This document shows positions 18,317 to 51,867 of a stretch of DNA of 64,000 nucleotides, piece after piece. The translations under genes were made by a program, and so were the position numbers. The first letter of the stretch is position 1. Every line of letters starts with the position of its first letter. Below the pieces are notes generated by a model. It did no database searches and was not told where the DNA came from. It was given only the letters and a program-made list of their open reading frames with translations. The DNA comes from a virus, in IMG/VR virus record IMGVR_UViG_3300044647_001247, positions 32,001 through 96,000 of that record; one strand, given 5' to 3'.

Positions 18317-19240
18317 ATGGCCACATTAAGTGTATCGTTTACTCCTCCTGGAACACCCCCTGCAAATGGTTATAGGGTGCAATACTGGCTTGCATCAGAT
18401 CCTTCTACTATATTTACAGTGTCACCCAATCCTACATCATCTCCTGTTACTATTACAGGTCTTACTGGAACTTTTTATCAAGGTACTATAGAAGCTGATT
18501 GTGGTGGGGGGTTATATTCTTCTTTAAATACTTTTTCAGCCAATACAATAACAGGAGATCCTTGTTTATCAGGAAATACACTTGCTAATGCAAACTGTTC
18601 TCTTACTGAAACTAAAACATTTACACTATCTACAGGTTTTTCAACAACTGTAAATTTATATGGTTTTTATTATTCAGGAACAGGAATAAGAACTATATCA
18701 GGAAGACTGTTAAATAACAGTAATGCTTTAATCCAAGAGTTTACTTATACGCAAACAGGGGCTAGTGTAGGAACGACTAGTCCTAGTTTTTATACACTTA
18801 CTAATATATCAGGATCTGCTGTAAGTTATAAACTTCAAATTGACACTGTAATTTGCACCAACGGTACAGGTGTTGGAGCCATGACTGCTAGTGGTTGCAC
18901 ATCTACAAGTCCTTCTGTAGTAGTTAATAACGCTACATTCTCTGGTTTAACTATATCAGCAGTAACTGTTAATAGTGTTGCTGTAACATATGAAACAGGT
19001 GTTAACTTACCTATTGCATATTCAGGTTTAGGTTATTTTAGAACTACACAAGTGGGAACATTTAATATAGCTGTTTCATATAGCAATCCTGCTGTTTCTA
19101 GTCCAAGAGCTATACGTGTAACAGGTAGTAATGGTGTTTCTCAAACACAAACTTCTCAAGCAACAAGTGCAACACTTACATTTAGTAACGTAGTGGTAAA
19201 CACTTCACAATCTGTACAGATAGCTATTGTGCAGAGTTAA
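18317..19240 (+). CDS. FN3/Ig-like multidomain virion protein
   Basis: TLSVSFTPPGTPPANGYRVQYW...QGTIEADCGGG plus beta-rich C-terminal domains. Confidence 0.7.
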   Translation: MATLSVSFTPPGTPPANGYRVQYWLASDPSTIFTVSPNPTSSPVTITGLTGTFYQGTIEADCGGGLYSSLNTFSANTITGDPCLSGNTLANANCSLTETKTFTLSTGFSTTVNLYGFYYSGTGIRTISGRLLNNSNALIQEFTYTQTGASVGTTSPSFYTLTNISGSAVSYKLQIDTVICTNGTGVGAMTASGCTSTSPSVVVNNATFSGLTISAVTVNSVAVTYETGVNLPIAYSGLGYFRTTQVGTFNIAVSYSNPAVSSPRAIRVTGSNGVSQTQTSQATSATLTFSNVVVNTSQSVQIAIVQS

Positions 19241-19279
19241 AATATAAAGTCAGTGGTTTTGTTGGTTTACCCACACGAC

Positions 19280-19318
19280 AGGTCTCGGTGTTTCTACATT
19301 GAGACCTTAATTTTATTA
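19280..19318 (+). terminator. Rho-independent terminator
   Basis: AGGTCTCGGTGT-TTCT-ACATTGAGACCT followed by TAATTTTATT. Confidence 0.75.
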
Positions 19319-19402
19319 AACTGTTTATAAAATGTGCATAAAATATGTTAGAGTTATATAATATAATCTAACTTTATGCACCATATACCAAATACTAAAA
19401 TT

Positions 19403-20719
19403 ATGTCTTTAATTAATCAGGTGTATGGTTCTCTCAGATGGAAAAAAACTGATGAGTTCTGTGCGACAAAGTTAGGTGTTTCATTACAGAAATACCAAGA
19501 AATCAAAAAACAAATCTCAGAAACAAAACAACTGCTACAAGAAGAATTAGATTCTAGTCTTATAGAGTTTGTAGGTAAAAGAATGCTAGAACTTATTGAT
19601 GACGAAGGAATTAAGAATGAGTATGTTTTAGATATGAAATACAATCTACAAGATGCTATACTTTCTGAGAAAGAAAAGGTGATAGAATTTAGAGAAAATT
19701 TAGATGACTGCACTGCTGAAATTAAAGGAATAGCTTTTGTAGAACCAAAAAGTCCTGAAGAAATAATAAGGATTTTAAAAATTGACACTACAAAATGGAA
19801 GCTTAGCTCCTATTGGAATAAGCAACATAAAGACCATTGGCTTATTTCTGCCATGGTTACTCAAAAGACTTTAGAAGAAAAAGATTTTTTAAAGGAAGTG
19901 ATTGAAAACTTCCAGCCAAGTTATACACCAGTTGCAGAGGTGCATTTGAATGACACATTCGTTTTACCTACAGTGGGGGTTTTGAGTATTCAAGACCTTC
20001 ACTTTGGTAAAGAAGGTAATGATGGAGTGGCTGATGACTTTAGAGAAGCTATTAGTAATTTAGTATTAAAGGCTTATAAAAGTCATAAACTTGATAAAAT
20101 CATTTATGTATTTGGTGGTGATCTTTTAAACATGGATAGTTTTCATGGATCTACTACAAAGGGTACACCTGTAGATAATGATTTAAGAGCACAAGATGCT
20201 TATAAAATAGCATTTGATTCATTATACTGGAGTGTAAACTTTGTAAAACAATTTTGTAATAATCTCCATGTAGTGTATCTACCTGGTAATCATGATAGAC
20301 TTAGTAGCTATCATATGGCTCATGCTCTTTCCAAATGTTTTAATACAGCTTCTAATATCATATTTGATGTTGAATATGCTGAAAGAAAAGTTATTACTTA
20401 CGGTGATAACTTTTTTGCTTTTGAGCATGGTGATATTAGCTCAAAAAATACTCCTTTAGTATATGCAACAGAATTTCCAAAACAGTGGGGTGCAACAAAT
20501 TATAGAACTTGTTACACCGGTCACTGGCACCATAAGAAAACAACTCAGTATATATCTGAAAATGAAATACACGGATTTGCCATTAAACATCTTCCTTCTC
20601 TCTCTAAACCTGACTACTGGCATTACCATAACAAATATACAGGTGCTAAACGCCAAGCTATTATTGAAATCCATGATCAGAGGAAAGGTAAAATATCTGA
20701 GTTTGTATATACAGCGTAA
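19403..20719 (+). CDS. Calcineurin-like metallophosphoesterase with N-terminal HTH-like region (alternative start 19376)
   Basis: All five motifs present: DLHFG, GGDLLNMD, PGNHD, EHGD, GHWHH. Confidence 0.85.
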   Translation: MSLINQVYGSLRWKKTDEFCATKLGVSLQKYQEIKKQISETKQLLQEELDSSLIEFVGKRMLELIDDEGIKNEYVLDMKYNLQDAILSEKEKVIEFRENLDDCTAEIKGIAFVEPKSPEEIIRILKIDTTKWKLSSYWNKQHKDHWLISAMVTQKTLEEKDFLKEVIENFQPSYTPVAEVHLNDTFVLPTVGVLSIQDLHFGKEGNDGVADDFREAISNLVLKAYKSHKLDKIIYVFGGDLLNMDSFHGSTTKGTPVDNDLRAQDAYKIAFDSLYWSVNFVKQFCNNLHVVYLPGNHDRLSSYHMAHALSKCFNTASNIIFDVEYAERKVITYGDNFFAFEHGDISSKNTPLVYATEFPKQWGATNYRTCYTGHWHHKKTTQYISENEIHGFAIKHLPSLSKPDYWHYHNKYTGAKRQAIIEIHDQRKGKISEFVYTA

Positions 20720-20775
20720 ACCTGTAAGGTTTAGTTTTAAACTATAGAGATTTTTACGTAAATTATTAATGTAGA
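20717..20775 (+). promoter_or_regulatory. Inverted repeat plus late-promoter-like motif, copy 4
   Basis: TAAACCT-GTA-AGGTTTA-G-TTTTAAACT, then GTAAATTATTAATGTAGA; same architecture at 33954-34010. Confidence 0.6.
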
Positions 20776-20780
20776 CAACT

Positions 20781-21389
20781 GTGAGTAAACCATATAAAAA
20801 ACCAGATCTTAACGCTCCTAGGTATAGACCAAAGAAGTTAAATTTTACCAATGCTACTTTTTATGAGCAATTTGTAAAAGATAATCCTAAGTATTCAAGT
20901 CTCATCACTCTAGAAATGTTTAAGAATATAATTACCACGTTCAATGGTAAAATCTGGAAAACTGTGGTAGAAGACAGAGATGGTGTAGAACTTCCTGAGC
21001 AGCTTGGTTTTATTTTTATAGGTACATGTCCTCGTAAAAAAAGTAATATAGATTTTAATAAATCAGAGAAATATGGAGTAACACTCCAGAATCAAAACTG
21101 GGAGTCTGATCAGTATATAGCTAAGATATTCTATACAAATTTTGAAACTAAGTATAGGTTTAAACATCATGAGATGTGGGGATTTTCTGGTGTTAGAGAT
21201 TTCAAAAGAACAATAGGTCAAACCTATCCCAAAGAGTGGAAGAAGTATTTAATGGTTGATAACTTAGTGAGAATAAGTAGAATATTTAGAAAGCAAAGAT
21301 TCAAACAACATAAACAAGAATTAACTAAAGACCTTCTTGAAACATATGATGAATTTAATTTAGAAAATCCATGGGCAGAACTACAATAG
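20781..21389 (+). CDS. IHF/HU-like DNA-binding protein of crAss-like phages
   Basis: Basic 202-aa protein with DGVELPEQLGFIFI motif; syntenic position before ring/muzzle genes as in crAss-like phages. Confidence 0.6.
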   Translation: MSKPYKKPDLNAPRYRPKKLNFTNATFYEQFVKDNPKYSSLITLEMFKNIITTFNGKIWKTVVEDRDGVELPEQLGFIFIGTCPRKKSNIDFNKSEKYGVTLQNQNWESDQYIAKIFYTNFETKYRFKHHEMWGFSGVRDFKRTIGQTYPKEWKKYLMVDNLVRISRIFRKQRFKQHKQELTKDLLETYDEFNLENPWAELQ

Positions 21390-22045
21390 GAAACGTTATT
21401 TCAAGAATACGTACACAGGTTAAGGCTGTTAGGCAAGATGCTTTCTTGACTGATCGGGCCATTTATGCTTTTATATTAAAGCATAGTAAGTGGCTCATGA
21501 AAAGAGAAGATAGTAAAAATAAACTTCTTGGTTATTCTGGTATTATACAAACCTTGGATTTTGTTGAATTAGAAGAAATTGATAAAGTGGAAGCTAAGTG
21601 TACAGGAGTATCTTCAGATTGTGTTATTAAAAGAACTAAATCTGTAATGCCTGTATTTATGCAGGGATATTATGGTCCACTAATTAGAAGTGTAACTTCT
21701 TTAGATGCATCTGAAGAACTTCAAATTACCAATCCTAGTACGTATTTGGTAATGAGTAGAAGCAAAAACTTCAAATATAATAAAACTAAATACTATTGGT
21801 ATTTAAATGATTATTTATATTTTCCTAATTTAGAATGGGATGCTATTCGTGTAGAAGGAATATTTGAAGATGATATTTCTAATTTTACTTGTGCACAAGA
21901 TAGTTGTGTTCAGAAAGTTGATCAACCTTTTAATGTACCTGATTATCTTTCTGGTGAGATAGAAAATAATGTATTTAAAGATCTTGTAGGAATGCTTCAA
22001 CTACCCTCAGATGTAAGTGCAGATAAGCAAAATATAAGTAGATGA
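21371..22045 (+). CDS. Tail ring / tubular protein
   Basis: crAss-like synteny; KYYWYLNDYLYFPN...IRVEGIFED motif. Confidence 0.7.
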   Translation: MGRTTIGNVISRIRTQVKAVRQDAFLTDRAIYAFILKHSKWLMKREDSKNKLLGYSGIIQTLDFVELEEIDKVEAKCTGVSSDCVIKRTKSVMPVFMQGYYGPLIRSVTSLDASEELQITNPSTYLVMSRSKNFKYNKTKYYWYLNDYLYFPNLEWDAIRVEGIFEDDISNFTCAQDSCVQKVDQPFNVPDYLSGEIENNVFKDLVGMLQLPSDVSADKQNISR

Positions 22046-22908
22046 AAACAGAACTTTCATATAAAACATTTGATGAACTTCTTAGTGAGGTGGCAACAGA
22101 CTTTGCCACTTATAACAATGAGGGGATGATTGAACCAGGTCAACTTATCAAGGTGGCTCAAAGAGTTAGTTATGATTTGGGTCTTAGAATACATGGTACA
22201 AAAGAAAAAGTTTTAGAGGTAACAAATAAAAAAACAAAGCTTCCTGATGATTTTTATGTTTTAAACTATGCTTATTTATGTGGTAAGTATAGTGTTACAA
22301 ATGCTGTCCTATCAGGAAGACAAACAGAAGATGTTATTTTAAATAGTTCTTATTGTTCTAAATGTGGAGAGCCCGATCCTACATGCACTTGTGAAAAAAC
22401 ATACACTATTGAATGTAACACAGGAGAGAAGATATTTGTACAGGTGGTTGAAAAAAGAAAATATGAAACCAGGGTGTATGATAGTTTTACACCTATCAGC
22501 ATTGCAACATCTACTGGAAGAATAGATGCTCTAGATGATTCTAAACCAGCTGGTTATATTAAGAACAAGTTTATATACACTAATATAGAAGAGGGAAGTT
22601 TGTTTATATCTTATGAAGGTGCTCTAGAAGATGAACATGGAAACTTGTTAGTATTAGATCACCCTATGATTAATGAATATTATGAATATGCTTTTAAGCA
22701 AAGGATTCTTGAAAATCTATACATTAATGGAGAAGATGTAATGCAAAAAATGCAACTTATAGAACAGCGTCTTAGAGCTGCTCGTAATAATGCTTTAACA
22801 ATAGTGAACACTCCAAATTTTTCAGAAATGAAGAAATTATGGGAAACAAACCGTAAAGCTCAATATGGACGATATTATAATATGTTCAAATCAGGAGAAA
22901 GCTGGTAA
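22042..22908 (+). CDS. Tail ring / tubular protein
   Basis: ATGA overlap with previous gene; KLPDDFYVL and ISYEGALEDEHGNLLVLDHP motifs; Cys-rich insert CSKCGEPDPTCTC. Confidence 0.7.
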   Translation: MKTELSYKTFDELLSEVATDFATYNNEGMIEPGQLIKVAQRVSYDLGLRIHGTKEKVLEVTNKKTKLPDDFYVLNYAYLCGKYSVTNAVLSGRQTEDVILNSSYCSKCGEPDPTCTCEKTYTIECNTGEKIFVQVVEKRKYETRVYDSFTPISIATSTGRIDALDDSKPAGYIKNKFIYTNIEEGSLFISYEGALEDEHGNLLVLDHPMINEYYEYAFKQRILENLYINGEDVMQKMQLIEQRLRAARNNALTIVNTPNFSEMKKLWETNRKAQYGRYYNMFKSGESW

Positions 22909-23275
22909 CACCTTCAGACGTTGCAGCACAACTATACAGTTTACAACTTATGGATGTAAGCTTGTTATTGCTGTAGTGGATAGTGTTAAAAAAGAGGTGG
23001 AGAAATTATATAAAAAATACAAGATTGATGAGGAATTTGATGATGATGCAGAAGGGGCATTAGTAATGCCTGATATGAAAACTTATTATTTACTTCTAGG
23101 AAAGGCGTTCATCACTCATAACACTATAGCTCATGAAGTGTTTCATGCATCTGTAAGAATTACAGAACATCGTGGAATAACTGATGAAGAAACTCAAGCT
23201 TGGATGGCAGGGCACATTACAGAGATATTATATAAGTTTTTAGAAAAAAAGAAGTTAGAAGTAAAACATGGCTGA
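22865..23275 (+). CDS. Small zincin-like metallopeptidase (start uncertain)
   Basis: TIAHEVFHA (HExxH) followed by DEETQAW (candidate third-ligand Glu). Confidence 0.7.
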   Translation: MDDIIICSNQEKAGNTFRRCSTTIQFTTYGCKLVIAVVDSVKKEVEKLYKKYKIDEEFDDDAEGALVMPDMKTYYLLLGKAFITHNTIAHEVFHASVRITEHRGITDEETQAWMAGHITEILYKFLEKKKLEVKHG

Positions 23276-26200
23276 GCAACAACAAAATCCTGGAGTGATC
23301 ACTAACACCTTTAGTAATGGTATGGTGAAAGACTACAATGAAACATTTGTAGGAGAAGGATTATATACTCATGCTCGCAATGTTGTAAGTAATTCACATG
23401 ATGGTCAGCTTGGTGTAAAAGGTAATGAGCCAGCTAACTTAAGTTGCATCACTCTTCCTTATAGCTTAATAGGATGTATTCATCTTTCTGATGATCAATG
23501 GTCTGTATATACAACAGATGATACTAATTCTGAGATAGGAATATTTGATGAAAGTCAATGCACTTATACAAAGGTGGTAAATGATCCATGTTTAGGATTT
23601 AAAAGATCTAACTTAATTACAGGTGCTTCACGTAAACGTTATGATTGCGATAGACCTGTTTATTGGGTTGATGCACTGAATCCAGATAGATTTATGGATC
23701 TTAGTAATCCCCCTTTTAAATATATAGAAACTATAGTTGATGGTTGTAAAGTAAAAACTATAACACAACCTTTACAGCTTGATTGTGAAAAGATAAGACT
23801 TGCATCTTTAATACAACATCCTTGTTTAATCTTAAATAAAGGAAAAGTTGCAGGAACTTTACCTAATGGTTCTTATCAAGTTGCTATAGCTTACACTGAA
23901 GATGGTGTTAGATTAACCGGGTATATTGGAATATCAGAAGTACAATCATTATTTACACATGAAAATGTTAGTTCTTCTTTAGAACTATCAATTACTACTA
24001 TAGATACAACATTTGACGAATTTGAGTTAGTTGTAATTGGTCGTATTAATGGTACAACAGTAGTTAAAAAAATAGGAAACTACTCAACCTCACAAGGTAA
24101 AATATACATTGACAGGTGGGATCAAGAGTTTGAAACAGTGCCAATTAGTCAAGTGGTATTTAGAGGAGACTCTTCTGAAAAAAGTGATGCTATATACGAA
24201 GTGAATAATTATTTATTAAAAATTGGAGACTATTCAAAGTTTAAATTTAATTATCAAAAACAAGCTAATAATATAAATGTTAGTTGGACAGCTGTTCAAT
24301 ATCCTTCTAATTATTATTTTAAAGGTGGAAATAATACTGGTTATTTAAGAGATGAACAATATTCATTTTTTATAAGATGGGTATACAACACTGGTGAACG
24401 TTCTGAGTCCTATCATATACCTGGAAGAGATGCTCTAGCTAGTGATAGAACTTTAGTAATGGGAGATGATGCTTTTGAAACATCTGGTATAGATTCTATT
24501 ACAAGAGAAAGATGGCAGGTGTATAATACAGCCACTTTAGATAATCTAAATAGTTACACTCTTTCTGATGGAGGGCTTGTTATAGCATCAGGTAAAATGG
24601 GATTTTGGGAAAGCACTGAAAAATATCCAGATAACACTCCTGATATTTGGGGAACATTATGTGGAAAAAACATTAGACATCATAAGATGCCTGATGAAAC
24701 TACAGCTCCATCCTTAAATTTATTTTCAAATAATGGTAAATTTATTAATATTCTTGGAGTTAACTTTAGTAATATAACTCATCCTTTAGACAACCAAGGT
24801 AATCCTATACAGTCAATTGTAGGATATGAATTATTAAGAGGATCTAGAGAAGGTAATAAATCTATTATTGGAAAAGGACTGCTTAATAATATGAGGGAAT
24901 ATTCTATTCCTAATCAAACAACTAAAGGGCTTTTTCAAAATTATCCATACAATGATTTAAGACCAGATCCTTATTTAACAGATTCTCCTAATTTAGATGG
25001 TCAATCTGCATTAAAAGGACAAGCTAATGTTTCCACTTCAAAAATGAGTGGCTATAAAAAGAATATATTTTCATTTCATAGTCCTGATGTAACTTTTTCC
25101 AATCCTTTTTTAAATGCCAATGAACTAACTATTTATCAGGAAGTGTATGGTGAATCTAATGGTAGATTTGTTAATTCTTGGAAACATCCTAAATTTAAAG
25201 TTTTAAGTAATTTTAGTTCAGTTTTCGGAGATGTAGCTTCTATAATAAGCACAGTTCAAACAGCTCTTGGAGCACTTGGAGGAGGTCTTGATTTAAAAAT
25301 TGAAGCTGATAAAGATGCTCCTGTATCAACAGGACTAACTTTAAATCCAAACTATGCTGGAGATACAGTTACTGTTTTTGGTTCAGGTGCCTCACCTTTA
25401 ACTATTGCACAGTTTATTGCAGCAGGTGTTGCAAATGGACTTTTAATAGGTGCGTTGATAGGAACAGGTATTCTACCAGCAATGTATAAACAACAGTATT
25501 TAAGACTTTTTATATATTTAATTCCTAAAAAACAATACTCAGCTCAATATAATTCACATGGTGTTTATGATGGAGGAGCCATACCAAAAAAAATAGGTAA
25601 TAAAAGAAGAAAGATTAAAGAAGCATTATATATAGGAAGTGGAAATAGCCAGTTTAATTCTGACTATTTTGTTAATAACACAGCTAGAAGTAATGTAGTT
25701 GTTTTAGAAACTGAAAAAGATTTGGATGATCCAACCACTACAGACAATAGTAGAGTGACATTAGGTGAAGCAAATAGTAATTTATATCAAAATATTAAAA
25801 CAACTATATCAAGTCACTATGGTGCTTTAAAAATTAGCATACCTTCTCAATATGGTCAATTAGGTGGAATAAAACAATTTCCTATAAATGGAGGTTGTAT
25901 TTTTAACACTACACCTGATAAGACTAAAAAGTTTAATACATCTTCTCCACTTTTTAACGGAGACACTTATATAAATAAATTTACTGAAAAAAACACAATG
26001 TTCTTTTTCACTGATTGGATGATTGGTGAGCCTGATAGAACTGAATGGGATTACACTTTATATATGTATATTCCCTATCCAAGATTTTGGATAAATAATG
26101 TAGAAGAAAATGTAGCTTTTTTAGAAGCAGCTGATAATTATAGATCATTAGATAAAAGAACATCTGGTTTCTTACATGTAAGTTCTGGATATTTTTATTT

Positions 26201-27866
26201 ATTTAATTCTGGTGTTAGAGAGTTTTTTGTTGAAAGTGAGGTTAATTTAGCATATAGAGATTGGGAAGAAGATCCATCTAAGCGTCATTATGATTCTGAT
26301 AGATACACTGATCTTGATAGTATGTTTAGAAGTGACATTATAAAAAGTGGAAACTTTTATAAATATGATTATAACTTAAGTGTATCTAAATTATTTAATT
26401 CTCATATTACTTGGGGAAATATATTAGGTCTTGATTATGATCCTACCACTGCAGAAAAATGTTACGTATATAGACCTAGTAGAGTTAGATATTCTCTTCC
26501 TCAATTTCAAGAATCAAAAAAAGATAACTGGAGAATATATTTAACTAACAATTATAAAGATTTTGACTCTCCTGTAACATCTATAAAATCTGTAAATAAA
26601 ACAGGTGCTTTGTTTATGATGTCAAGACAGAGTCCTATGCAGTTTATGGGTGTAGAAGAACTGAAGCTAGATGGAACGGGTGCTAAAATTACAATAGGTG
26701 ATGGGGGGCTTTTTAATCAACCTTTACAACAAATTGTAAATACCGAAAGTTCTTTTGAGTATGGTTCTTGCCAAAGTAAGTATTGTTCTATTAATACAAT
26801 ACACGGTGTTTTTTGGGTGAGTCAAAATCAGGGAAAGATATTTCAGTATGCTGGACAAATAAAAGAGATATCTAAAAATGGTCTTAAGTGGTGGTTTGCT
26901 AGATATTTACCTAGTGAACTATTAGCAGCGTATCCCACCTATCCTTATTTTGATAACCCGGTAATTGGTGTAGGGGTACAAATAATGTATGACAATACTA
27001 ATGAGATTGTATATATTACTAAGAAAGACTATAAACCACTAAAAACCAATTTGTTATTTGACTCAAAAGGTTTTTATGAAATAAGTTCATCTAATGGTAA
27101 GGTGTACATTCCTTTAACTAACACTAGTTATTTTGAAGATGCTAGCTGGACTATATCATATGATCCAAACGGGAATGATGGTAAAGGTGCTTGGGTTAGT
27201 TTTCATGACTGGATACCTAGCTTTTTAATTCCTGGGAAAGCTCATTTTATGAGTGTCAATCAAAATTCTATATGGAAGCATAATGTAAGATGTGATAAGT
27301 TCTGTAATTTTTATGGTGTAGATTATCCTTTTGAAATTGAGTTTATATCATCTACGGGTCAGCAAGTTGTTTCTATGAGAAACGTAGAGTATATATTAGA
27401 AGCTTATAAAATTCACAATGAATGCAGAGATGAGTTCCATGTATTAGATGCAAACTTTGATCAGGCTATTATATATAATTCAGAACAAGTATCTGGACTT
27501 TTAGAACTAGAACTTAAGAATAAAACCAACCCGGTGGCAATGCTTAGTTATCCTCAGATAAGAGCACAATCTATAGGAATAAACTATTCTAAAGAAGAGC
27601 AAAAGATTAGATTTAATCAATTTTGGGATATAACAAAAGAAAGAGGAGAGTTTGCCCCAAATACAAACATTCCAATGTTTATTACAGAGGCTAATGGATA
27701 TAAGTTTAAAATCAATCCAGCTTATGTAAACTATCAAAAGTCACCATTAGAGCGTAAGAAGTTTCGTCACAATTTAAATAAAGTGTTCTTAAGAAAGTTT
27801 AAAAGTGATGATGTAAAGATGTTATTTAAAATATCTAATCAGAAAATACAACTTAGTCAAAGGTAA
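23268..27866 (+). CDS. Tail muzzle / stabilization protein (P22 gp10-like) of crAss-like phages
   Basis: 1532 aa with NTFSNGMVKD, YLRDEQYSFFIRW, GDTYINKF and SWTISY...WVSFHDW motifs; synteny after ring genes. Confidence 0.8.
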   Translation: MAEQQQNPGVITNTFSNGMVKDYNETFVGEGLYTHARNVVSNSHDGQLGVKGNEPANLSCITLPYSLIGCIHLSDDQWSVYTTDDTNSEIGIFDESQCTYTKVVNDPCLGFKRSNLITGASRKRYDCDRPVYWVDALNPDRFMDLSNPPFKYIETIVDGCKVKTITQPLQLDCEKIRLASLIQHPCLILNKGKVAGTLPNGSYQVAIAYTEDGVRLTGYIGISEVQSLFTHENVSSSLELSITTIDTTFDEFELVVIGRINGTTVVKKIGNYSTSQGKIYIDRWDQEFETVPISQVVFRGDSSEKSDAIYEVNNYLLKIGDYSKFKFNYQKQANNINVSWTAVQYPSNYYFKGGNNTGYLRDEQYSFFIRWVYNTGERSESYHIPGRDALASDRTLVMGDDAFETSGIDSITRERWQVYNTATLDNLNSYTLSDGGLVIASGKMGFWESTEKYPDNTPDIWGTLCGKNIRHHKMPDETTAPSLNLFSNNGKFINILGVNFSNITHPLDNQGNPIQSIVGYELLRGSREGNKSIIGKGLLNNMREYSIPNQTTKGLFQNYPYNDLRPDPYLTDSPNLDGQSALKGQANVSTSKMSGYKKNIFSFHSPDVTFSNPFLNANELTIYQEVYGESNGRFVNSWKHPKFKVLSNFSSVFGDVASIISTVQTALGALGGGLDLKIEADKDAPVSTGLTLNPNYAGDTVTVFGSGASPLTIAQFIAAGVANGLLIGALIGTGILPAMYKQQYLRLFIYLIPKKQYSAQYNSHGVYDGGAIPKKIGNKRRKIKEALYIGSGNSQFNSDYFVNNTARSNVVVLETEKDLDDPTTTDNSRVTLGEANSNLYQNIKTTISSHYGALKISIPSQYGQLGGIKQFPINGGCIFNTTPDKTKKFNTSSPLFNGDTYINKFTEKNTMFFFTDWMIGEPDRTEWDYTLYMYIPYPRFWINNVEENVAFLEAADNYRSLDKRTSGFLHVSSGYFYLFNSGVREFFVESEVNLAYRDWEEDPSKRHYDSDRYTDLDSMFRSDIIKSGNFYKYDYNLSVSKLFNSHITWGNILGLDYDPTTAEKCYVYRPSRVRYSLPQFQESKKDNWRIYLTNNYKDFDSPVTSIKSVNKTGALFMMSRQSPMQFMGVEELKLDGTGAKITIGDGGLFNQPLQQIVNTESSFEYGSCQSKYCSINTIHGVFWVSQNQGKIFQYAGQIKEISKNGLKWWFARYLPSELLAAYPTYPYFDNPVIGVGVQIMYDNTNEIVYITKKDYKPLKTNLLFDSKGFYEISSSNGKVYIPLTNTSYFEDASWTISYDPNGNDGKGAWVSFHDWIPSFLIPGKAHFMSVNQNSIWKHNVRCDKFCNFYGVDYPFEIEFISSTGQQVVSMRNVEYILEAYKIHNECRDEFHVLDANFDQAIIYNSEQVSGLLELELKNKTNPVAMLSYPQIRAQSIGINYSKEEQKIRFNQFWDITKERGEFAPNTNIPMFITEANGYKFKINPAYVNYQKSPLERKKFRHNLNKVFLRKFKSDDVKMLFKISNQKIQLSQR

Positions 27867-30811
27867 TGAAACGGACAGATTCTATATTACAGCAGTTTTA
27901 TATGTCTAGGCTTCCTAAAGCTCAGATGGGACTAGCCATATCTGATGGTACAAGGGTGGCACCAAGACCAAAAGCTTTAACTGAAGCTGAATATCAAGAA
28001 AATGAACGTGCTAGAAAAATAACAAAAGAAGGCACTGAAAGACGAAATAAGCAAATTTTAGAAGAAAGACAAAAAGCAAGAAATACAAAAGGTACATTTA
28101 AGGAAAAGAACTTTAACATAGGTGAGAAGTTTAGAATGTTTCCTGGTAGTGTAGGTGGTGCAGGAGAACTCTTTGATGACTATATCAATCCTTTAAAGTT
28201 TGTTGGAGACATGGCTTCAAATCTAGGTAATTCTAGAACACCCCAAGAAGCAGCTCTAAATGTAGCAATGACAGCAGGACTTGGTGCTCTTGGATTTGAC
28301 CCATTAGGTAGTGGATTAAAATCTTCAGCTTTTAAAGAAGCACGTGCATCTTTTCCAAAATTTATAGATGAAGTTTCATATTCTATAAATAAACCTAAGT
28401 CTGTAGAACAAATAACTAATAAGAATTTATATAAAGAATTAGGATCTCCTTTGAATATTTCAGAAGGATTAAATAATCAAGGTGTATTTAGTTTAAAAAG
28501 ATTTCCTGACCATGTTGTAAAATTTGAGCCTGTTGAAACAGTAGGTAGAGGTATTGGTTATCCTGAATATACAAATTTTGATTTTGTAAGTGCTATGAAA
28601 AATATAAAAGATAAACCTAACATAGCAAAGGTTAAAAATCAACTTAATGTAGAAAATAACAAGAGAGCTCTTATAATGAATAGGATTGATGATGGATACC
28701 GTCCTTTAGATCTTAATCCTATCAATTATAGAAAAATGCCAGATGACTCAGTTCGTAAAATGTACTATGACTTAAAAGATGTTATTAACAATGATTTAGG
28801 TTTTGATTTTATGGGTAACAACTACCTATACAATCCTAAAACAAAAGATTTTTCATTATTTGATTTTTCTCCACAATTTAAAGCAGGTAATGATGGTAAT
28901 TCACAATTCTGGATTAATGATGTTTTAGGTAATACTAATAGTAATTTACTTGGTAAAGCTCAAGCTAATAAAAACTTAAAAACAGCAATTATATCTAAGC
29001 TTGTTAATGATCATAGAGTGGCTGGACAAAATTTATTTAAAGAGATTGGTACAGGATATACATTACGAAGTCATGCTGATATTTCAAAACTTCTTGATAA
29101 AGGTGATAAGTTTGCTTTTCAAAAATTTAATAATGCACTTAAAGATGTTGATATATATCAGCAAGGTGGTGTAATAAAAGATGACAGAGGACAATGGGCA
29201 CATCCAGGTAAAGTAACTCGTATATCTAGTCCTAATATAACTATGAAGGGTGTACCCTATCCTGTACTAGGTGTAGGTTCTAATGGTGAAGAACAAATGA
29301 TGTATCCAGGACAAGAATATAATTTTGGTGGTGCATCTTATGTAGATGAATATCCTATGATGAAAAATGGTGGAGAAATGATTAAACGTAAAGATGGTAG
29401 TTATTCTAAAAGAGGACTCTGGGATAACATTAGAGCTAATAAAGGCTCAGGTAAAAAACCTAGTAAAGAAATGCTAGAACAAGAACGTAAAATAAAATCT
29501 AAAGAAATGAAATACGGAGGAACAAATAACTCAGGCTTTGAAGCTTTACCAGAATATGTACAAGCTAAAATATTAGCTAACATGGGATATGGTGGATATT
29601 ATAATCCAATGATGGAAGAAGGTGGTGAACCTAATGGTGGCATGGCACTAGGTCAGATAATGGCTGTTTCAGATAAGATGAATAAGCTTCGTCAGTTTAT
29701 ATCTCCTGATAAAAACTTAGATCCATGGATTGCTTCTAAGCTTGCAGTTATGGATGATAGTGCAGATGCTATTGCTAATTATATGATGTACAATCCTGAA
29801 GCTCAGGGTGATGAAGAAGAAATCTCACAAATGAGTAGAGGAGGATATGTTGTAAGTAGAAGTAGTGCACGTAAGGGTAAGACACATAAAGTGACAGGTC
29901 CTGATGGAACTGTTAAATACTTTGGTGATTCTAAGTTAGGACAGCATCCTGATGATCCTGAAAGAAAAAAAGCATTCTATGCTCGTCATAAAAAGAATTT
30001 AGATTCTAATCCATATTTTAGAGCCTTTGCTAAAGAAACATGGCAGCAGGGTGGACAACCTGGTTTATCATTTTGGAATGCTAGTAAAACTCCACAAGGT
30101 GCTGTTACACCTACAGGAATGTCAAATTATTTTAATGATAATAAACAAGGTTTTGATCAAGCAAATTTTACTAAAAAGATGCAGGAGTTAAATCTTGATA
30201 CATCAAGTAATGTATCATTACAACAAGATATGATGAAAAAATATCCTGATCTTGTAAATCAAGTGATGTCTGAATATGGTGATACAAATGCAGGTAGATT
30301 TGATGATGGTATTATAGGAGCTAGAGTTATTAATGCTGCTAGTAAAATTCCTACTCAAACTAAACAAGTTCCTCCTCAAATACAACAATCAATGGCACCT
30401 CCTCCTGCTACATATAAAAATCCAAATGCAGGATATGTAGTTAATGTAAGAGGAGATGATAATGACGGAGCTTATTATTTTCCTAGCTCTGAAAACTTTG
30501 ACAAACTTAGTTCAGCAATACCTGGTGGTAAAGAATACAGAGATGGTTATAAAGGAGCAACAGTTAATATGACTAATGCAAACTTTATGAAACAATACGG
30601 AAACAACTACAAAGAAGCACTAGGTCAAGCATACAAACGTAATCCACAAAATCCTGAGCAGTATATTCCAATGCAAAGAAATGGAGGATCTACTTGGTCT
30701 GGTAATAACTGGTATCAAAATGGAGGTTTAGTAAATGGTGCAGAAATGGAAGTGACACCTGAACAAGCTGAGATGTTACGTCAACAAGGTTATGAATTTG
30801 AAATAATTTAA
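27866..30811 (+). CDS. Internal virion (cargo) polyprotein with kinase-like domain and small modules
   Basis: TAATG-coupled to muzzle gene; no Cys seen; nine xxGG motifs; kinase-like motifs VVK, DFMGNN, LFDFS. Confidence 0.7.
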   Translation: MKRTDSILQQFYMSRLPKAQMGLAISDGTRVAPRPKALTEAEYQENERARKITKEGTERRNKQILEERQKARNTKGTFKEKNFNIGEKFRMFPGSVGGAGELFDDYINPLKFVGDMASNLGNSRTPQEAALNVAMTAGLGALGFDPLGSGLKSSAFKEARASFPKFIDEVSYSINKPKSVEQITNKNLYKELGSPLNISEGLNNQGVFSLKRFPDHVVKFEPVETVGRGIGYPEYTNFDFVSAMKNIKDKPNIAKVKNQLNVENNKRALIMNRIDDGYRPLDLNPINYRKMPDDSVRKMYYDLKDVINNDLGFDFMGNNYLYNPKTKDFSLFDFSPQFKAGNDGNSQFWINDVLGNTNSNLLGKAQANKNLKTAIISKLVNDHRVAGQNLFKEIGTGYTLRSHADISKLLDKGDKFAFQKFNNALKDVDIYQQGGVIKDDRGQWAHPGKVTRISSPNITMKGVPYPVLGVGSNGEEQMMYPGQEYNFGGASYVDEYPMMKNGGEMIKRKDGSYSKRGLWDNIRANKGSGKKPSKEMLEQERKIKSKEMKYGGTNNSGFEALPEYVQAKILANMGYGGYYNPMMEEGGEPNGGMALGQIMAVSDKMNKLRQFISPDKNLDPWIASKLAVMDDSADAIANYMMYNPEAQGDEEEISQMSRGGYVVSRSSARKGKTHKVTGPDGTVKYFGDSKLGQHPDDPERKKAFYARHKKNLDSNPYFRAFAKETWQQGGQPGLSFWNASKTPQGAVTPTGMSNYFNDNKQGFDQANFTKKMQELNLDTSSNVSLQQDMMKKYPDLVNQVMSEYGDTNAGRFDDGIIGARVINAASKIPTQTKQVPPQIQQSMAPPPATYKNPNAGYVVNVRGDDNDGAYYFPSSENFDKLSSAIPGGKEYRDGYKGATVNMTNANFMKQYGNNYKEALGQAYKRNPQNPEQYIPMQRNGGSTWSGNNWYQNGGLVNGAEMEVTPEQAEMLRQQGYEFEII

Positions 30812-30815
30812 TATT

Positions 30816-33800
30816 ATGAAAATACGCATTACAAAAAAAGGATTGCCTAAAGCACAATGGCAAAATAGTCAAATACCAGGAGGTCAAGCTATTAATCCAA
30901 GAAAAGTAGCAGGAAAGGAAAACTTGACCTCTTGGAATGTTTTTGATAATGCACCACAGCAAGGTGTTCCTACACAATTTATTGATCCTCAATCAGTTGT
31001 AAACACAGAACGTAATGTTTGGAATTATAGTCCCTATCGTAATAGTCAAGGTGAAAGTATAACAGGTGATGAGTATTATAATCAATTTTGGACTCCTCCT
31101 AACACTCCTGCAAAAACTGCTCCTAATATAAATAAAAAATCTACTTATAAAAAAACAAATAACTTTAATGATTATTTTGCTGCAGGAGCAATGACATTAA
31201 ATGCTTTAGATAATAGACAAACTGATAAGGAGTTGGAAGCTTCTTGGCGGAATGGTCTTATTAGTCCTGGTATTATTGATTATTCTCAAAACAGAGGAGA
31301 TTATGAAATGAACACTGGTATGGTAGACCCTTATAATACAGGAGCAAAAAACAAAGGACAATTTACTAATTCTTTTTATACTTCACAGTTTCAAGAAGGT
31401 GGTATATTTACACTAAATGAGGTGCAACAAGCTATATTACCTAATATGTTATCGGTAGCTTATGAAAGAAACACACCTGCATCAACATATGTTAATCCAC
31501 CTAATAATTCATTAAAAATAGATTACACAGATGCTGCTGATTTTATTAAATCACAGGAAGGATTTATACCAAAAGCAAAATGGGACTATGCTCAATATAG
31601 TGTAGGATATGGCACAAAAGCTAAAAATAAGAATGAAGTTATTTCTAAAGAAGAAGCTGAAAATAGATTAAAATTAGAACTTGCTCCTGTAATGGAAAAA
31701 ATACAGAGCAAGCTTAAAGTTCCTATTAATTCAGGTCAACTTATAGCTCTTGCTTCTATAAATTATAATACAGGTTCTTTAGCAAATAAATTAATTGATA
31801 GAATTAATAAGGGTGAAAGTCCTGACATTATAGCAAATACTATTAAAAGCATGGCATTAACTGGTGTGGGTAGTAATAAAATATTACCGGGATTAGTTAA
31901 ACGTAGGAATGAAGAAGCTGGCTTATTTTTACGTGGTTATGAAAATGGTGGTGAAAATACAGAAATTATGAAAATACGTATTACAAATTCTCCTGAGAAA
32001 ATGGAGTATGGTGGTCAATCTAATTATGCATTAGATCTTGGAAGAAAGAATATGTACACTGATATGCCTACTTCTCCATATGAAAGTGTAAGTAAAACAA
32101 TTCAGGAAGTTCCTGAAGAGTTTGCTACAATAGAAGCAGAAAAAGGAGAAACTATTCTTACTGATGTAGATGGTGATGGTATCAGAGAACATATGAATAT
32201 TGAAGGTAAATATCATGAATATGGTGGTACTAATCTTGCAGCTAATCCTGGTGATTTTGTTTTTTCTAATCATAAACCAAAGATGGCAATCAAAGATCCA
32301 ACTGTTTTAAAACTATTTGATAAGAAGTTTAAGAAAGGTGGTTACACTCCTGCTGAAATAGCAAAGCAGTATGACTTAAATAAATACAAAGCAGTGTTAG
32401 AAAATAAAGATGCTGATAAGTATGATAAAAATACAGCAGAATTAATGTCTAATAATATTAATAAAAAGTTAGGTATGTTGTCTTTTGTACAAGAAGCTAT
32501 AAAAGGTTTTCCACAAGGAATACCTGAAGTGGCTAAGTCAACAATGGGTCAAAATAATCAAGTTGCATATGGTGGGTATATTCCTGAAATGGCTTATGGT
32601 GGTTATCTGGAACAATATCAAGATAAGGGGCAAGTTACTCCTTCTTGGCTTAAACCATGGTTAAAATCTAATACACAAAAAGGTAGAACAAGTCCCACTG
32701 GAAAAATGACAACTTATAATCCAGATGTAGATAATATATACAAAGAGCTTGACTATTGGCAGAAAAGAGCAGGAAGAAATTTTAAGAGTGCTGATGATAT
32801 GCAATCTTTTATATATTCTTCAATAGAAAAGGAAGATCCTTCTATAATAGAAGATATGTGGAAGAAGTGGGGGAACACAGCAAAAAGTAAAAACACTGAT
32901 CTAGCTAATTTTGCTGATAATACAATAGGAGCAAGAACTGCTGATTTACTAAATACTTATAGAACAAAAAGAGGGCAACCTGTTTCTATACCTAGAAATG
33001 TTAAATCTAATTTTAATCTTCCTCCTTTAAATACAAATTCTATAGATTTGCCATTAACTGTTCCTAATCCATTTACACCACCTTCAGATAAAGTTCCTGA
33101 TTTTAATGAATCAAAAGGTAATACTCCTTATGGTTGGACAAATCCTGATAAAAGAAATTTAGCTAATGCTCTTATAAATAGAAGCTATATTAAAAAATAT
33201 CCTAGTGTAAGGTCAGATGTTAATCCTGCTATGTCTGATTTTAGAAATATGGATTGGAGAGGAAAGGCAGCGGAGCTTCAAGGAACTTATAATAGCCAAC
33301 TTAATACATTAGGTAATTTTCAGTCACCCACCTCTTTAGCTGCAAATATGTCCTTTATGGCAGGACAGCAGGGTGAAAATTTAGTTAATCGTGCTATAGA
33401 ACCTACAGAACAACAAAATGTAAATATTTATAATCAAGTGGCTGGACAGAATGCAAACATTATGAATAACGCATTAGCTAATGCTGCACAAAATAAGTTC
33501 TTACGTTCTGGAGAGAGAGCAGTAGTAAATCAGAGGTATAATCAAGAAATGATTGATTTTAACAATGCATATACACAAGCACGAAATCAAGGAGAGAATA
33601 ATGCTGCTGGTATATATAATACTAATGTAACAGAAAGTCCTTATTATTATATAGATCCTGCTACACAAAGAATGAAGTTTAATTCTGATAATGCACGTGC
33701 TGCTTTTGAAGCAGCTAGAAGAAGTGCTGGCCCGTCTGATAATGATGTAGTAGCTAAGTATCTTCAAATACGTAGTTCTTTAACAGGTGTTCCTGATGAT

Positions 33801-33953
33801 GAAAAGGATGATGTAACAAGAGCTATAATGGGTCTTGATAAATCAGCTAGAGGTAGAATGTCTCAGACAACATTTCCTTTTGATCAAATACGAAATAGAA
33901 CTACAGTACAACAACCTGTTACAGGTAATTATTCACAAAATCCTAACGGATAA
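30816..33953 (+). CDS. Internal virion (cargo) protein with GH24 lysozyme domain
   Basis: FIKSQEG...WDYAQYSVGYGT...QLIALASINYNTG...LPGLVKRRNEEAGLF at 31530-31932; IEAEKGE...HEYGG module. Confidence 0.8.
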   Translation: MKIRITKKGLPKAQWQNSQIPGGQAINPRKVAGKENLTSWNVFDNAPQQGVPTQFIDPQSVVNTERNVWNYSPYRNSQGESITGDEYYNQFWTPPNTPAKTAPNINKKSTYKKTNNFNDYFAAGAMTLNALDNRQTDKELEASWRNGLISPGIIDYSQNRGDYEMNTGMVDPYNTGAKNKGQFTNSFYTSQFQEGGIFTLNEVQQAILPNMLSVAYERNTPASTYVNPPNNSLKIDYTDAADFIKSQEGFIPKAKWDYAQYSVGYGTKAKNKNEVISKEEAENRLKLELAPVMEKIQSKLKVPINSGQLIALASINYNTGSLANKLIDRINKGESPDIIANTIKSMALTGVGSNKILPGLVKRRNEEAGLFLRGYENGGENTEIMKIRITNSPEKMEYGGQSNYALDLGRKNMYTDMPTSPYESVSKTIQEVPEEFATIEAEKGETILTDVDGDGIREHMNIEGKYHEYGGTNLAANPGDFVFSNHKPKMAIKDPTVLKLFDKKFKKGGYTPAEIAKQYDLNKYKAVLENKDADKYDKNTAELMSNNINKKLGMLSFVQEAIKGFPQGIPEVAKSTMGQNNQVAYGGYIPEMAYGGYLEQYQDKGQVTPSWLKPWLKSNTQKGRTSPTGKMTTYNPDVDNIYKELDYWQKRAGRNFKSADDMQSFIYSSIEKEDPSIIEDMWKKWGNTAKSKNTDLANFADNTIGARTADLLNTYRTKRGQPVSIPRNVKSNFNLPPLNTNSIDLPLTVPNPFTPPSDKVPDFNESKGNTPYGWTNPDKRNLANALINRSYIKKYPSVRSDVNPAMSDFRNMDWRGKAAELQGTYNSQLNTLGNFQSPTSLAANMSFMAGQQGENLVNRAIEPTEQQNVNIYNQVAGQNANIMNNALANAAQNKFLRSGERAVVNQRYNQEMIDFNNAYTQARNQGENNAAGIYNTNVTESPYYYIDPATQRMKFNSDNARAAFEAARRSAGPSDNDVVAKYLQIRSSLTGVPDDEKDDVTRAIMGLDKSARGRMSQTTFPFDQIRNRTTVQQPVTGNYSQNPNG

Positions 33954-40345: not shown

Positions 40346-43300
40346 ATGAATAAGTGTAGTATAAGTATACAGATTTTTGCCAATTTTACTAAGCAACTGT
40401 TAGCTCAAGATGCTAAGTATAAAAACTTTGCTGAAGTTGCAACGTTTATTATCAAGCGTCCTGGACAACCTGATAGTGTAAAGATGGTTGCTCTTAAAGG
40501 ACTTGCTAAGATATATGATCAGCTGGCTAAAAAAGACCAGACCTTTAGCTTTTCTGCAGATGACAGCAAAATCATTGATGTAGATTTGGAAAAAGATGAT
40601 TTAGAAACACAGTTTAAAAACATTGCTGCTAACTACCAAGTACGTCCTTCAGCTCCTCTTTCTATAGATACTATCAAGAATGATATAAAAAATCTTTCTT
40701 CTCTTCCAGTTTTGCAATTGCAGGACGCTGTTACTAAAATCGTAAAAGACATAGCTGCTCTTGCCAAAACTAATTTTCGTAAGAGTGCAGACGACATGGT
40801 TAAAATCATTGGTGAGCTTTATGATAGAGCTATTACTGAGCTAGATAAAAATACAGCAGTGAGTCCTATTATTCGGAACTCACTTACACAGCTTCTTAAT
40901 ACCGAAAAGAATATTGCTACAGAAGCTGCCAGTGATTATATTCCTTTAAAGAATACAATATACGGGGATACTAAAATCATAGTCAAGAAAGACGGTGGAA
41001 TATTTGAAGTTTTAAGAGACACTACTGGAAAATATATTGACATTAATTCATCAGATAGTTCAGAAGTAATATTTGATAGATCTGTTGGAGATCAGTTATT
41101 TAATCTTAGAGTGGACAGTTCACCTTTTGTAGGTGGTAACGATGGCACTCAATATATATTTTCTCACAATGAGTTGAGAAATGGTATGACCTTACGTGAT
41201 CGTACCGGGAAAGTTATAACTAACCAATTGCTTAGTTTTGATAATCCACTTTCTGCTCTTGAAGTGGTAGCTTCCCGTACAGAAATACAACGTAACCAAG
41301 ACCGCATTAGTAGAATTCGTTCAGAAATACCTACACGTACTCTTGAAACACAAGAGGTAGTCTCACAACAAAAAGCTTTGCTAGCAGGTAATCCTGTGCT
41401 TAGTGTATTTTCTCCTTTAGAAGGTGCACAAATACAGTTTCGTATTCCAGGGCAGCAAGGAGCTATGATATTATATGGTATAGATAACTATGCTATTATC
41501 TATCCTGATAATCGTACAGTGGCTGTAGACTTTTCTGAGACTCAGAAACAACTTATTTTAAAGCTTGCCCGCAAGAATACTACTAATGAAAATGGAATAA
41601 ATGTAACAGAACCTATTACAGAAGAAGACTTTTATAATCTGAAAGCCAGTTATGAAAAATTTAAAGATTTTAAGAAAGCTGTACAAGAAATCCTTGATCA
41701 AAATAAAAACCAATCTGAAATTATTTTACCACAAGCTTTAGTTACTGCTTATATTAATCTTGCCCGTACTGGTGAAGCTATTGCTGTTGCACCCAGTGCA
41801 GATCAACAAGCTAGTCTAACTACATTGTTAAACAAAGAAGGAGGTCCTGGACAGATTAGTTTTAATGTAGTAGAAGCTTTAGATGATAATTCTTATTCTG
41901 AACCACGTCGTGTTACTAAACCTATTATAGTAGCTAAACAAGGTGGTGTTTGGACATTTATATCAGACCTTAAGGGTAATGAGATGGTTGCTGTTGATCG
42001 TGATGATAGAAAAGAATATATGTCTTTTTCTGATTATATGCAAAATGAACTTAAAATATCTCCAGATATTAACATACAAAAGTTTCCAAGTTCTTTTGCA
42101 TGGCTTTATCAGAAACCTAATGGTAAATTACAACCTATTGCTCTTAAGTATATACCAGTAGAAAATAGTGCAGATATTGCACGACTTGCTATGGGGTTTG
42201 GTCAGTTACTAAAAAAAATGAGTGATCCTCAAACAGAAGGACCAAAAGAACTCAGAAACTTTAACTTGAACGTCTTTGGTTTTTCTCCCTATAATCCAAC
42301 AGGTGCTACAAGTTTTGCAGGTGACTTTGACGTATTTAAAGATCCAAGTGGTGAACGCAGTGTGTCTATTCAGATTCGTCCTATGACTATGAACTGGAGC
42401 CAAGTACCTCGGGATGTAAGAAAGGCTTTAACTGTATATATAGATGTTCCTGTTATGACTGCTTTTTTAAAAGTGGTACGTATAGCTGCAGAAATACCTG
42501 CATTTAAATCACAGAAAAATGACCTTAATACAGCGGCTGGTAAAAATGCTTTGGTAAAATTTATAGATGAAGATCCCCAGCTTCGTAAACAACTTATGAG
42601 TGCTTATGAAGATATTAATACACACCTCTATCGTAAGTTTCAGTCTATAGGTGAAAAACTTACTAAGACTTCTTATAATGGCGAGTTTGATATACCTAAG
42701 ATTTACACACTGATGGAAAATGAAAAAAGTGATCTTAGTGGAAGATGGAAGCTTAAAATAAAAGATCGTCAAACTGGTAATGATGTAACTAACTTTAACA
42801 ACTATCGTAGCATGACTACGGAAGAAGTGTTTACATTTGGTGGTATTCAGGCTGTGTTTGCAGGACCAAACGTTTCTGCTATACAGACAGTTAATAAACC
42901 AGCTCCAGTAACACAAAATCCTGCTAACAACACTACAGCAGATAATGTTCCTGGTACTGCTGGAACTATAGAGATAGATCTTAATTTTGAAGATGGTGCT
43001 TTTGAACTTGCTATGGATACTGAACTTTTCCAAGCATATCAAGCAGGGCAGTTTCAGCAAGAACTAGATTGGATTAAAGCAAATCTACCAAAAGAAATCA
43101 GCGTAGAAGACCTAGCTGATATTATGGATAATCTTAAAGCTGAAGGTCGTGTACTTGGTTATTTTAGAGACCGAGTTATCTATCTCAATGAACAGCTTTC
43201 TGGTAGAGGATCAGGATATCATGAAGCATTCCATGGTGTGTTTAGAAAACTAATGGATGCTTCTACTCGTGATCGTTACTTAAAACTTACCAAAGAAAAA

Positions 43301-51850: not shown

Positions 51851-51867
51851 ACCTACCAAATATTAAT

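Follow-up and report, generated by a model that had tools for sequence, protein, structure and literature searches.

A protein-kinase-like domain in an exchangeable cassette of a putative phage virion cargo protein

The stretch of DNA analysed here (the window) comprises 64,000 nucleotides, positions 32,001 to 96,000 of the IMG/VR virus record IMGVR_UViG_3300044647_001247, which is 109,819 bp long, has an estimated completeness of 84% and a G+C content of ~33%. An open reading frame (ORF) at 27866-30811 encodes a protein of 981 amino acids, here called P0001, which is a modular cargo-type (polyvalent) phage protein with a protein-kinase-like domain at residues 188-424 (28427-29137); this ORF and all features of P0001 given below are on the + strand. 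Based on a structural model and fold searches, we are highly confident that residues ~188-424 adopt a compact protein-kinase-like fold with a complete catalytic set. Because the domain is located in an exchangeable slot of a protein encoded in a cargo block, the phage probably delivers a ready-made kinase. On balance, the explanation that we favour for the observations as a whole is a catalytic kinase cassette in a virion-packaged protein that is delivered to the host.

The kinase-like domain and its family

The initial annotation had read this part of P0001 as a protein kinase from a set of short motifs, and translation and a codon check place all of them at the positions that it gave. The N-lobe contains an atypical nucleotide-loop motif, G201-x-x-N204-x-G206 (28466-28483), and the beta-3 lysine, K219 (28520-28522), which ends the VVK at 28514-28522. 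The catalytic loop, D314-F-M-G-N-N319, is encoded at 28805-28822, with the codon for D314 at 28805-28807 and the codon for N319 at 28820-28822. The metal-binding aspartate of the DFG-equivalent (LFDFS/FDFSP) is D333 (28862-28864). The spacing is kinase-like, with +5 residues from D314 to N319 and +14 from N319 to D333.

An exhaustive phmmer search with residues 160-445 against 1.84 billion cluster representatives identified 46 proteins, 6 of which matched at E-values ≤ 1e-30 and 36 at E-values ≤ 1e-10. The family thus consists of 46 clusters at 50% identity, and except for one short fragment all of them are 28-43% identical to the domain in P0001. The matches are all segments of phage-type proteins punctuated by the motif [MYFW]xxGG, nearly all long and multidomain, and the kinase stretch is found at varied positions within homologous proteins of up to 2575 amino acids.

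For the conservation counts, the domain was cut from all 46 representatives and aligned, giving 47 rows where P0001 is included. K219 and D314 are conserved in 46 of 46 homologues, G317 in 45 of 46, and D333 in all 47 rows. N319 is kept in 42 of 46, and the remaining four read GNGN, with the asparagine shifted one residue later. E221 is present in 41 of 47 rows, and G201, N204 and G206 in 43-45 of them. The nucleotide loop in the family reads G-x-x-N-x-G-V-[FY], unlike the GxGxxG of the canonical glycine-rich loop, and the alignment contains no HRD histidine and no conserved histidine ahead of D314. The lysine, the two aspartates and the asparagine, whose loss among homologues the initial annotation had named as evidence against a kinase, are conserved across all these distant relatives, with the exceptions given for N319. 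Since K219, D314 and D333 are invariant and N319 is nearly so in sequences this divergent, we regard the kinase domain as genuine, and selection almost certainly acts to maintain its catalytic function. Judging from the same residues, the domain is likely to be catalytically active.

The AlphaFold2 model of the domain, built from a 21-sequence alignment (A1), has a mean predicted local distance difference test score (pLDDT) of 87 and a predicted template-modelling score (pTM) of 0.84. In the model, the strands of the N-lobe lead through a hinge to a long helix ahead of the catalytic loop, D333 lies between two short strands, and the helices of the C-terminal part follow. A Foldseek search against the PDB gave at least 500 matches at E-values ≤ 0.001; the 50 listed are without exception protein kinases, and their lowest E-value is 1.7e-6. 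The template-modelling (TM) scores of these matches are 0.37-0.46, and the tighter alignments cover ~170 columns at ~5 Å. VIA-align, a fold search independent of Foldseek, was run against 48,161 chains, and all 50 matches listed have kinase-like folds, with Z-scores of 8.1-9.9 and 156-222 residues superposed at a root-mean-square deviation (rmsd) of 3.8-6.8 Å. Among them are PknS (Z 9.9), Rio2 (Z 9.6) and maltokinase (Z 8.3), and also Rad53, PIM1 and Rio1. The match to NleH1 has a Z-score of 8.1, with 156 of its 160 residues superposed at an rmsd of 4.2 Å. A Foldseek search against the predicted viral structures in BFVD recovered almost exclusively annotated kinases, none of them near (TM ≤ 0.51). 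The predicted fold, the second point on which the initial annotation had let its reading depend, is therefore kinase-like according to both the AlphaFold2 model and the structure searches of the PDB.

In a comparison of the family profile with the PDB, NleH1, NleH2, and a related type III effector kinase rank first, weakly, with E-values of 0.089-0.48 for the A1 profile and 0.037-0.048 for the A2 profile, which contains 33 sequences. The alignment to NleH1 and NleH2 spans the hinge, the pre-loop helix, the D-x4-N loop, and the DFG-equivalent, and it places residues 314-319 on the NleH1 catalytic loop and D333 on the IDIS of NleH1. In the ESM Atlas, the nearest named cluster is OspG_kinase, with a score of 0.91, and all closer clusters are viral and unnamed. 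An APH cluster and a cluster with the T7-kinase family in 11% of its members both score 0.90. The profile and cluster comparisons thus point to an affinity of the family to NleH/OspG that is weak but consistent.

Searches with single sequences and existing models were negative. A phmmer search of the P0001 sequence against the PDB gave nothing relevant, a tblastn search with P0001 had no match among 50,697 phage records, and a search of viral contigs with the kinase domain alone found no relative. No Pfam kinase family matched at E ≤ 0.01 in the 28 family members scanned. At E ≤ 10, the OspG_kinase hidden Markov model (HMM; PF22303) had no match in the record, and Kinase-PolyVal (PF18762) had none in the domain or in the whole 109.8-kb record. 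Iyer et al. 2017 described kinases in polyvalent proteins of phages of Bacteroidetes and Verrucomicrobia, and predicted their delivery (PMC5512222). The C-terminal subdomain of those kinases is lost, and they have a His-insert-Asp arrangement and a conserved glutamine (PMC5512222). Set against the HMM scans and this description, the P0001 domain appears to represent a family of its own that is not yet catalogued, although broadly of the same kind as PF18762, because it has no conserved histidine before the catalytic D314 and retains the helical C-terminal part (positions 185-265 of the model).

An exchangeable slot in a protein punctuated by GG motifs

The search with the whole protein gave 658 homologues of P0001 at E ≤ 0.001. 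The best 120 of these share with it only residues ~440-740 and the last ~30 residues, and none spans residues 180-300. The boundaries of the kinase segment are resolved by comparison with L002, a viral contig of 69 kb that is collinear with the window and encodes a P0001 orthologue of 1193 amino acids. In a blastn comparison of the two, positions 19120-27946 of the window are aligned at 77-80% identity (25798-27946 at 77%), nothing is aligned over 27947-29164, and similarity resumes at 29165-30054 with 89% identity and at 30713-30872 with 97.5% identity. Positions 27947-29164 therefore represent an exchangeable cassette, with no DNA similarity to the syntenic contig and with both flanks aligning.

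The protein comparison gives the same picture. The N-terminal leader (residues 1-27, 27866-27946), which contains LPKAQ, is identical to the L002 orthologue in 23 of the first 24 residues. Residues 434-730 are 87% identical, and this alignment starts exactly at the GG (G434-G435) of YQQGG (29156-29170) and ends exactly at a QGG. Between the leader and these modules, the L002 orthologue has ~320 residues that contain no kinase. YQQGG marks the module boundary after the kinase, as the initial annotation had noted, and the closing GG is found in 43-44 of the 47 rows of the family alignment. The small conserved modules downstream of it (residues 436-730, 29171-30055) are separated by [MYFW]xxGG motifs and followed by a second variable region (residues 731-949, 30056-30712), which does not align to L002. 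The C-terminal tail (residues 950-981, 30713-30808) is again conserved, with 97% identity to the last 32 residues of the L002 orthologue; it is present in 101 of 119 homologues and has a weak match to DUF7210.

The homologues carry other domains around the common modules, namely ART-PolyVal, YkuD, DUF3597, DUF5872, or SET domains. In one of them (P0016), an ART-PolyVal ADP-ribosyltransferase (ART) domain at residues 549-700 lies immediately upstream of the conserved module at 734, and in another (P0005) a YkuD domain lies in the second variable region. A third (P0135) combines an N-terminal SET (lysine methyltransferase) domain with tandem kinase copies. A cluster look-up of the homologues returned only "hypothetical protein" labels. 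The initial annotation had proposed that the kinase occupies a swappable effector slot, with alternative domains in homologues. This proposal is supported, because the breakpoints against L002 in both DNA and protein enclose different sequence in the two phages and because ART-PolyVal is found upstream of the same module in P0016. P0001 is in this respect a polyvalent protein, in that unrelated effector-type domains are variably combined in one large phage polypeptide.

The leader is 77-91% identical in eight further homologues, and LPK[AM]Q is present in 19 of 119. Among the homologues with LPK[AM]Q, ~260 to 945 residues separate the leader from the first of the conserved modules. The leader is a candidate packaging signal. 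At the C-terminus of the kinase-bearing proteins P0125-P0167, three types of tail recur, of which each protein has one: an acidic ...QGY.[IV]EE[LM], GGxWL[DN]KY, or KTSSERI.Y.H.R.K. The tails might act as alternative signals for docking or packaging. Three of the kinase-bearing proteins (P0135, P0136, and P0137) contain a tandem pair of kinase copies. In two further related contigs, L003 (8902-9086 and 10012-10731) and L004 (8496-8680 and 9644-10133), modules that adjoin each other in P0001 are divided between two adjacent ORFs, so that reshuffling takes place not only inside genes but also from one gene to another.

P0001 contains nine motifs of the type [MYFWLIV]xxGG, each of which begins with M, Y, or W, compared to an expectation of ~1.3 for [MYFW]xxGG. 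In the 46 kinase-bearing proteins there are 137 [MYFW]xxGG motifs versus ~41 expected from composition, a ~3.3-fold enrichment. The motif punctuates both the 981-aa ORF and the neighbouring 1045-aa ORF (29156-30727 and 31389-32603 of the window), and it occurs four times each in two virion proteins, gp040 of phage phi4:1 and gp45 of crAss001. The GG motifs of P0001 coincide exactly with the homology breakpoints against L002, and this agreement suggests modular rules by which delivered phage effectors are assembled. The AlphaFold2 model of residues 436-730 contains small folded modules with low-confidence linkers at the motifs (pTM 0.30). A search of the PDB with a profile of these residues found nothing, and the corresponding fold search gave only generic helical-hairpin matches (Z ≤ 6.6) and no link to the portal-bound domain of gp45. 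The motifs may be flexible hinges, docking elements, or protease/cleavage sites that release the kinase.

Genomic context and the case for a virion protein

The start codon of P0001 overlaps the stop codon of an upstream ORF of 1532 amino acids (23268-27866), and on its 3' side follow a 1045-aa ORF (30816-33953) and then ORFs of 1000, 1103, 3834 (40346-51850), and 2193 (51835-58416) amino acids. The 1532-aa ORF matches PHROG families of virion structural proteins and gp042 of phi4:1. In pairwise BLASTP comparisons with crAss001, it has a weak but collinear similarity to the muzzle protein gp44 (23% over 447 amino acids, E 2e-6), while the 3834-aa ORF matches gp47 (E 1e-9) and gp50 (E 2e-7), and the 2193-aa ORF matches gp49 (E 4e-6) and also gp50. 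The 3834-aa ORF resembles a fusion of gp47 and gp50. A phmmer search of the 3834-aa and 1532-aa ORFs against the PDB found nothing. The 2193-aa ORF has a weak match to a PD-(D/E)XK nuclease at residues 488-608 (E 7e-5). Phages related through the 1532-aa ORF include Cellulophaga phages phi4:1 and phi17:2, Flavobacterium phage FpV4, Leptolyngbya phage Lbo-JY46, and the human-gut phage csAssE-Sib.

The gene order in crAss001 is the muzzle gene gp44, the cargo genes gp45 and gp46, and then gp47, gp49, and gp50, which encode RNA-polymerase proteins; gp45, gp46, gp47, gp49, and gp50 were all detected in virions by mass spectrometry (PMC10172136). Because P0001 lies between the gp44-like and the gp47/gp49/gp50-like ORFs, its position is that where cargo genes are located. 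Moreover, residues 453-515 of P0001 align with residues 30-97 of phi4:1 gp040 at 35% identity (pairwise E-values from 1e-4 to 1e-8), and the MKNGG of P0001 is matched to the FQAGG of gp040. Within this range, residues 453-503 correspond to residues 30-85 of gp040. The annotation of gp040 and its neighbours is derived from tandem mass spectrometry (MS/MS) of virions. By analogy with crAss001 and phi4:1, P0001 is probably packaged in the virion. The virion cargo assignment of the initial annotation thus has indirect support, in that it is favoured by the synteny with crAss001 gp44-gp50 and by the module in common with phi4:1 gp040, and disfavoured by the lack of a match to the crassvirus cargo models, which we return to below.

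The product of the adjacent 1045-aa ORF also bears on this block. It contains a Phage_lysozyme domain at residues 245-367 (E 9e-17), located between an FQEGG and a YENGG motif, and its N-terminus has an LPKAQ like the leader of P0001. Lysozyme domains are typical of ejection proteins, and the product is probably a cell-wall-cutting ejection protein.

The kinase in P0001 is preceded by a Gly/Ala-rich segment at residues 129-151 (28250-28318), which the initial annotation had described as hydrophobic and pre-toxin-like. The segment is indeed present, but it is only moderately hydrophobic, with a Kyte-Doolittle maximum of 1.19 over 19 residues, and a strong transmembrane helix at this site was rejected on the basis of this value. 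Similar segments are found after a DDYINP...GxM motif in two homologues (P0122 and P0126), in which the kinase is likewise N-terminal, and such segments are absent from homologues with an internal kinase. A pre-toxin domain was also rejected, as there is no homology between the segment and the pre-toxin domains of polymorphic toxins and the segment is part of an N-terminal module common to P0122 and P0126. A better parallel than a pre-toxin domain is crAss001 gp45, which also has an N-terminal Gly/Ala-rich hydrophobic segment (residues ~120-160) at a similar position, with a stronger transmembrane candidate (Kyte-Doolittle 1.73 compared to 1.19 in P0001). This segment of gp45 is a predicted transmembrane helix (136-158), which has been proposed to enter the membrane of the host when ejection takes place (PMC10172136).

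Proposed role, alternatives and comparison with known systems

In the mechanism that we propose, P0001 would be packaged in the virion, like the crAss001 cargo proteins and phi4:1 gp040. It would then be extruded from the N- to the C-terminus, ahead of or together with the DNA, and refold in the cytoplasm. The kinase would use host ATP to phosphorylate Ser/Thr residues of host proteins or co-delivered phage proteins, and this may aid take-over or counter-defence without a need for phage transcription. By analogy with other delivered phage proteins, we give roughly even odds, with a slight lean towards doubt, to P0001 being both delivered and active early. A broader proposal is more tentative, namely that crass-like and related Bacteroidota phages carry uncatalogued NleH/OspG-like kinases as pre-made cargo that would phosphorylate host proteins before phage gene expression, the kinase, ART, and SET domains serving as interchangeable warheads in a GG-punctuated scaffold.

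Several observations weigh against a delivered kinase. The fold-match scores are moderate (TM 0.37-0.46, Z 8-10), scans of the kinase domain against Pfam at E ≤ 10, NCBIfam, and PHROG identified no kinase family, nor did scans of the whole protein against these collections, and the nucleotide loop is atypical, with GxxNxG in place of GxGxxG. P0001 matches neither of the crassvirus cargo models in Pfam, and in a positive control the crAss_CARG1 model (PF25725) matched crAss001 gp45 at E 2e-66 but not P0001. Furthermore, a folded kinase of 240 residues must unfold to pass the tail, and a kinase fold does not reveal its substrate.

The alternative that P0001 is made late and acts in the infected cell or in assembly, being undelivered or serving only as a structural component of the tail or the ejectosome, is consistent with the location of the gene within the late structural block, where it is read with the tail genes, and with the missing cargo-model match. 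We regard it as unlikely, since the genes at the same position in crAss001 and phi4:1 encode virion proteins according to mass spectrometry, P0001 has a module in common with phi4:1 gp040, and the exchange of effector-type cassettes is typical of delivered polyvalent proteins (PMC5512222). In another alternative, the domain is an enzyme of kinase fold that does not phosphorylate proteins; its substrate could be a small molecule, a sugar, or a lipid, as in APH, maltokinase, and the lipopolysaccharide-core kinases, or it could transfer a nucleotide in the manner of SelO. The kinase-like fold includes such enzymes, as illustrated by the maltokinase match (Z 8.3) and the APH cluster (0.90), and the family has an atypical nucleotide loop that includes a conserved asparagine. 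Yet the best structural matches among those listed are protein kinases and Rio kinases, at the sequence level only the protein kinases NleH1 and NleH2 match, and the companion ART and SET domains modify proteins; we consider a non-protein substrate somewhat more unlikely still. A pseudokinase or scaffold, in which the fold is kept for binding of ATP or a partner and there is no phosphotransfer, would account for the non-canonical glycine loop and the lack of an HRD histidine. This seems very improbable given that K219, D314, and D333 are found in every homologue and N319 in nearly all, in sequences with only 28-43% identity. The delivered protein kinase therefore remains the reading that we prefer.

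Kinases in delivered phage polyvalent proteins are a kind that was already predicted in 2017 (PMC5512222), and the literature searched contained no report of a virion-packaged phage kinase. What is new here is a sequence family missed by current models, its weak affinity to NleH/OspG, its placement in a crass-like cargo block, and the exact boundaries of the cassette. Since the family is invisible to the Pfam and PHROG models, such kinases are missed in phage annotation. Crass-like phages rank with the most abundant viruses known and carry several megadaltons of virion cargo, the roles of which are largely known only for the RNA polymerase. A kinase with its catalytic residues intact, placed in a cargo slot that can be exchanged, is a concrete candidate for a function of this cargo. 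If confirmed, it would represent a pre-made host-modifying enzyme, comparable to T4 Alt and to the kinases that large animal viruses carry in the tegument or core.

Among the known systems, one that corresponds in genomic position is the crAss001 cargo protein C1 (gp45; PF25725), the gene for which lies just after the muzzle gene and before the virion RNA-polymerase genes, and the domains of which are flanked by [FI]xxGG motifs. It differs in that it has no detectable sequence homology to P0001 and contains no kinase. Kinase-PolyVal (PF18762) is similar in that the kinase is found inside large multidomain proteins of phages of the Bacteroidetes lineage, with delivery together with the DNA predicted, and in that ART-PolyVal co-occurs in the protein family, as it does here. 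It differs in the two features of the catalytic region and the C-terminal part given above. The OspG/NleH kinases (PF22303; PDB 4LRJ, 4LRK) are compact, and no other solved proteins come closer in the sequence profile comparison, if weakly. Like the kinase proposed here, they are delivered as effectors, but by type III secretion into an animal cell rather than by a phage virion into a bacterium.

T7 gp0.7 is likewise a phage kinase thought to modify host proteins for take-over. It is the product of an early gene and not a virion protein, and no sequence relation to P0001 was detected. The functional precedent is T4 Alt, an ADP-ribosyltransferase that is carried in the phage head and enters the host along with the DNA. 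As proposed for P0001, the virion here delivers an enzyme that is made beforehand and modifies proteins, and a homologue of P0001 carries an ART domain, while the chemistry, the phage lineage, and the packaging signal are different.

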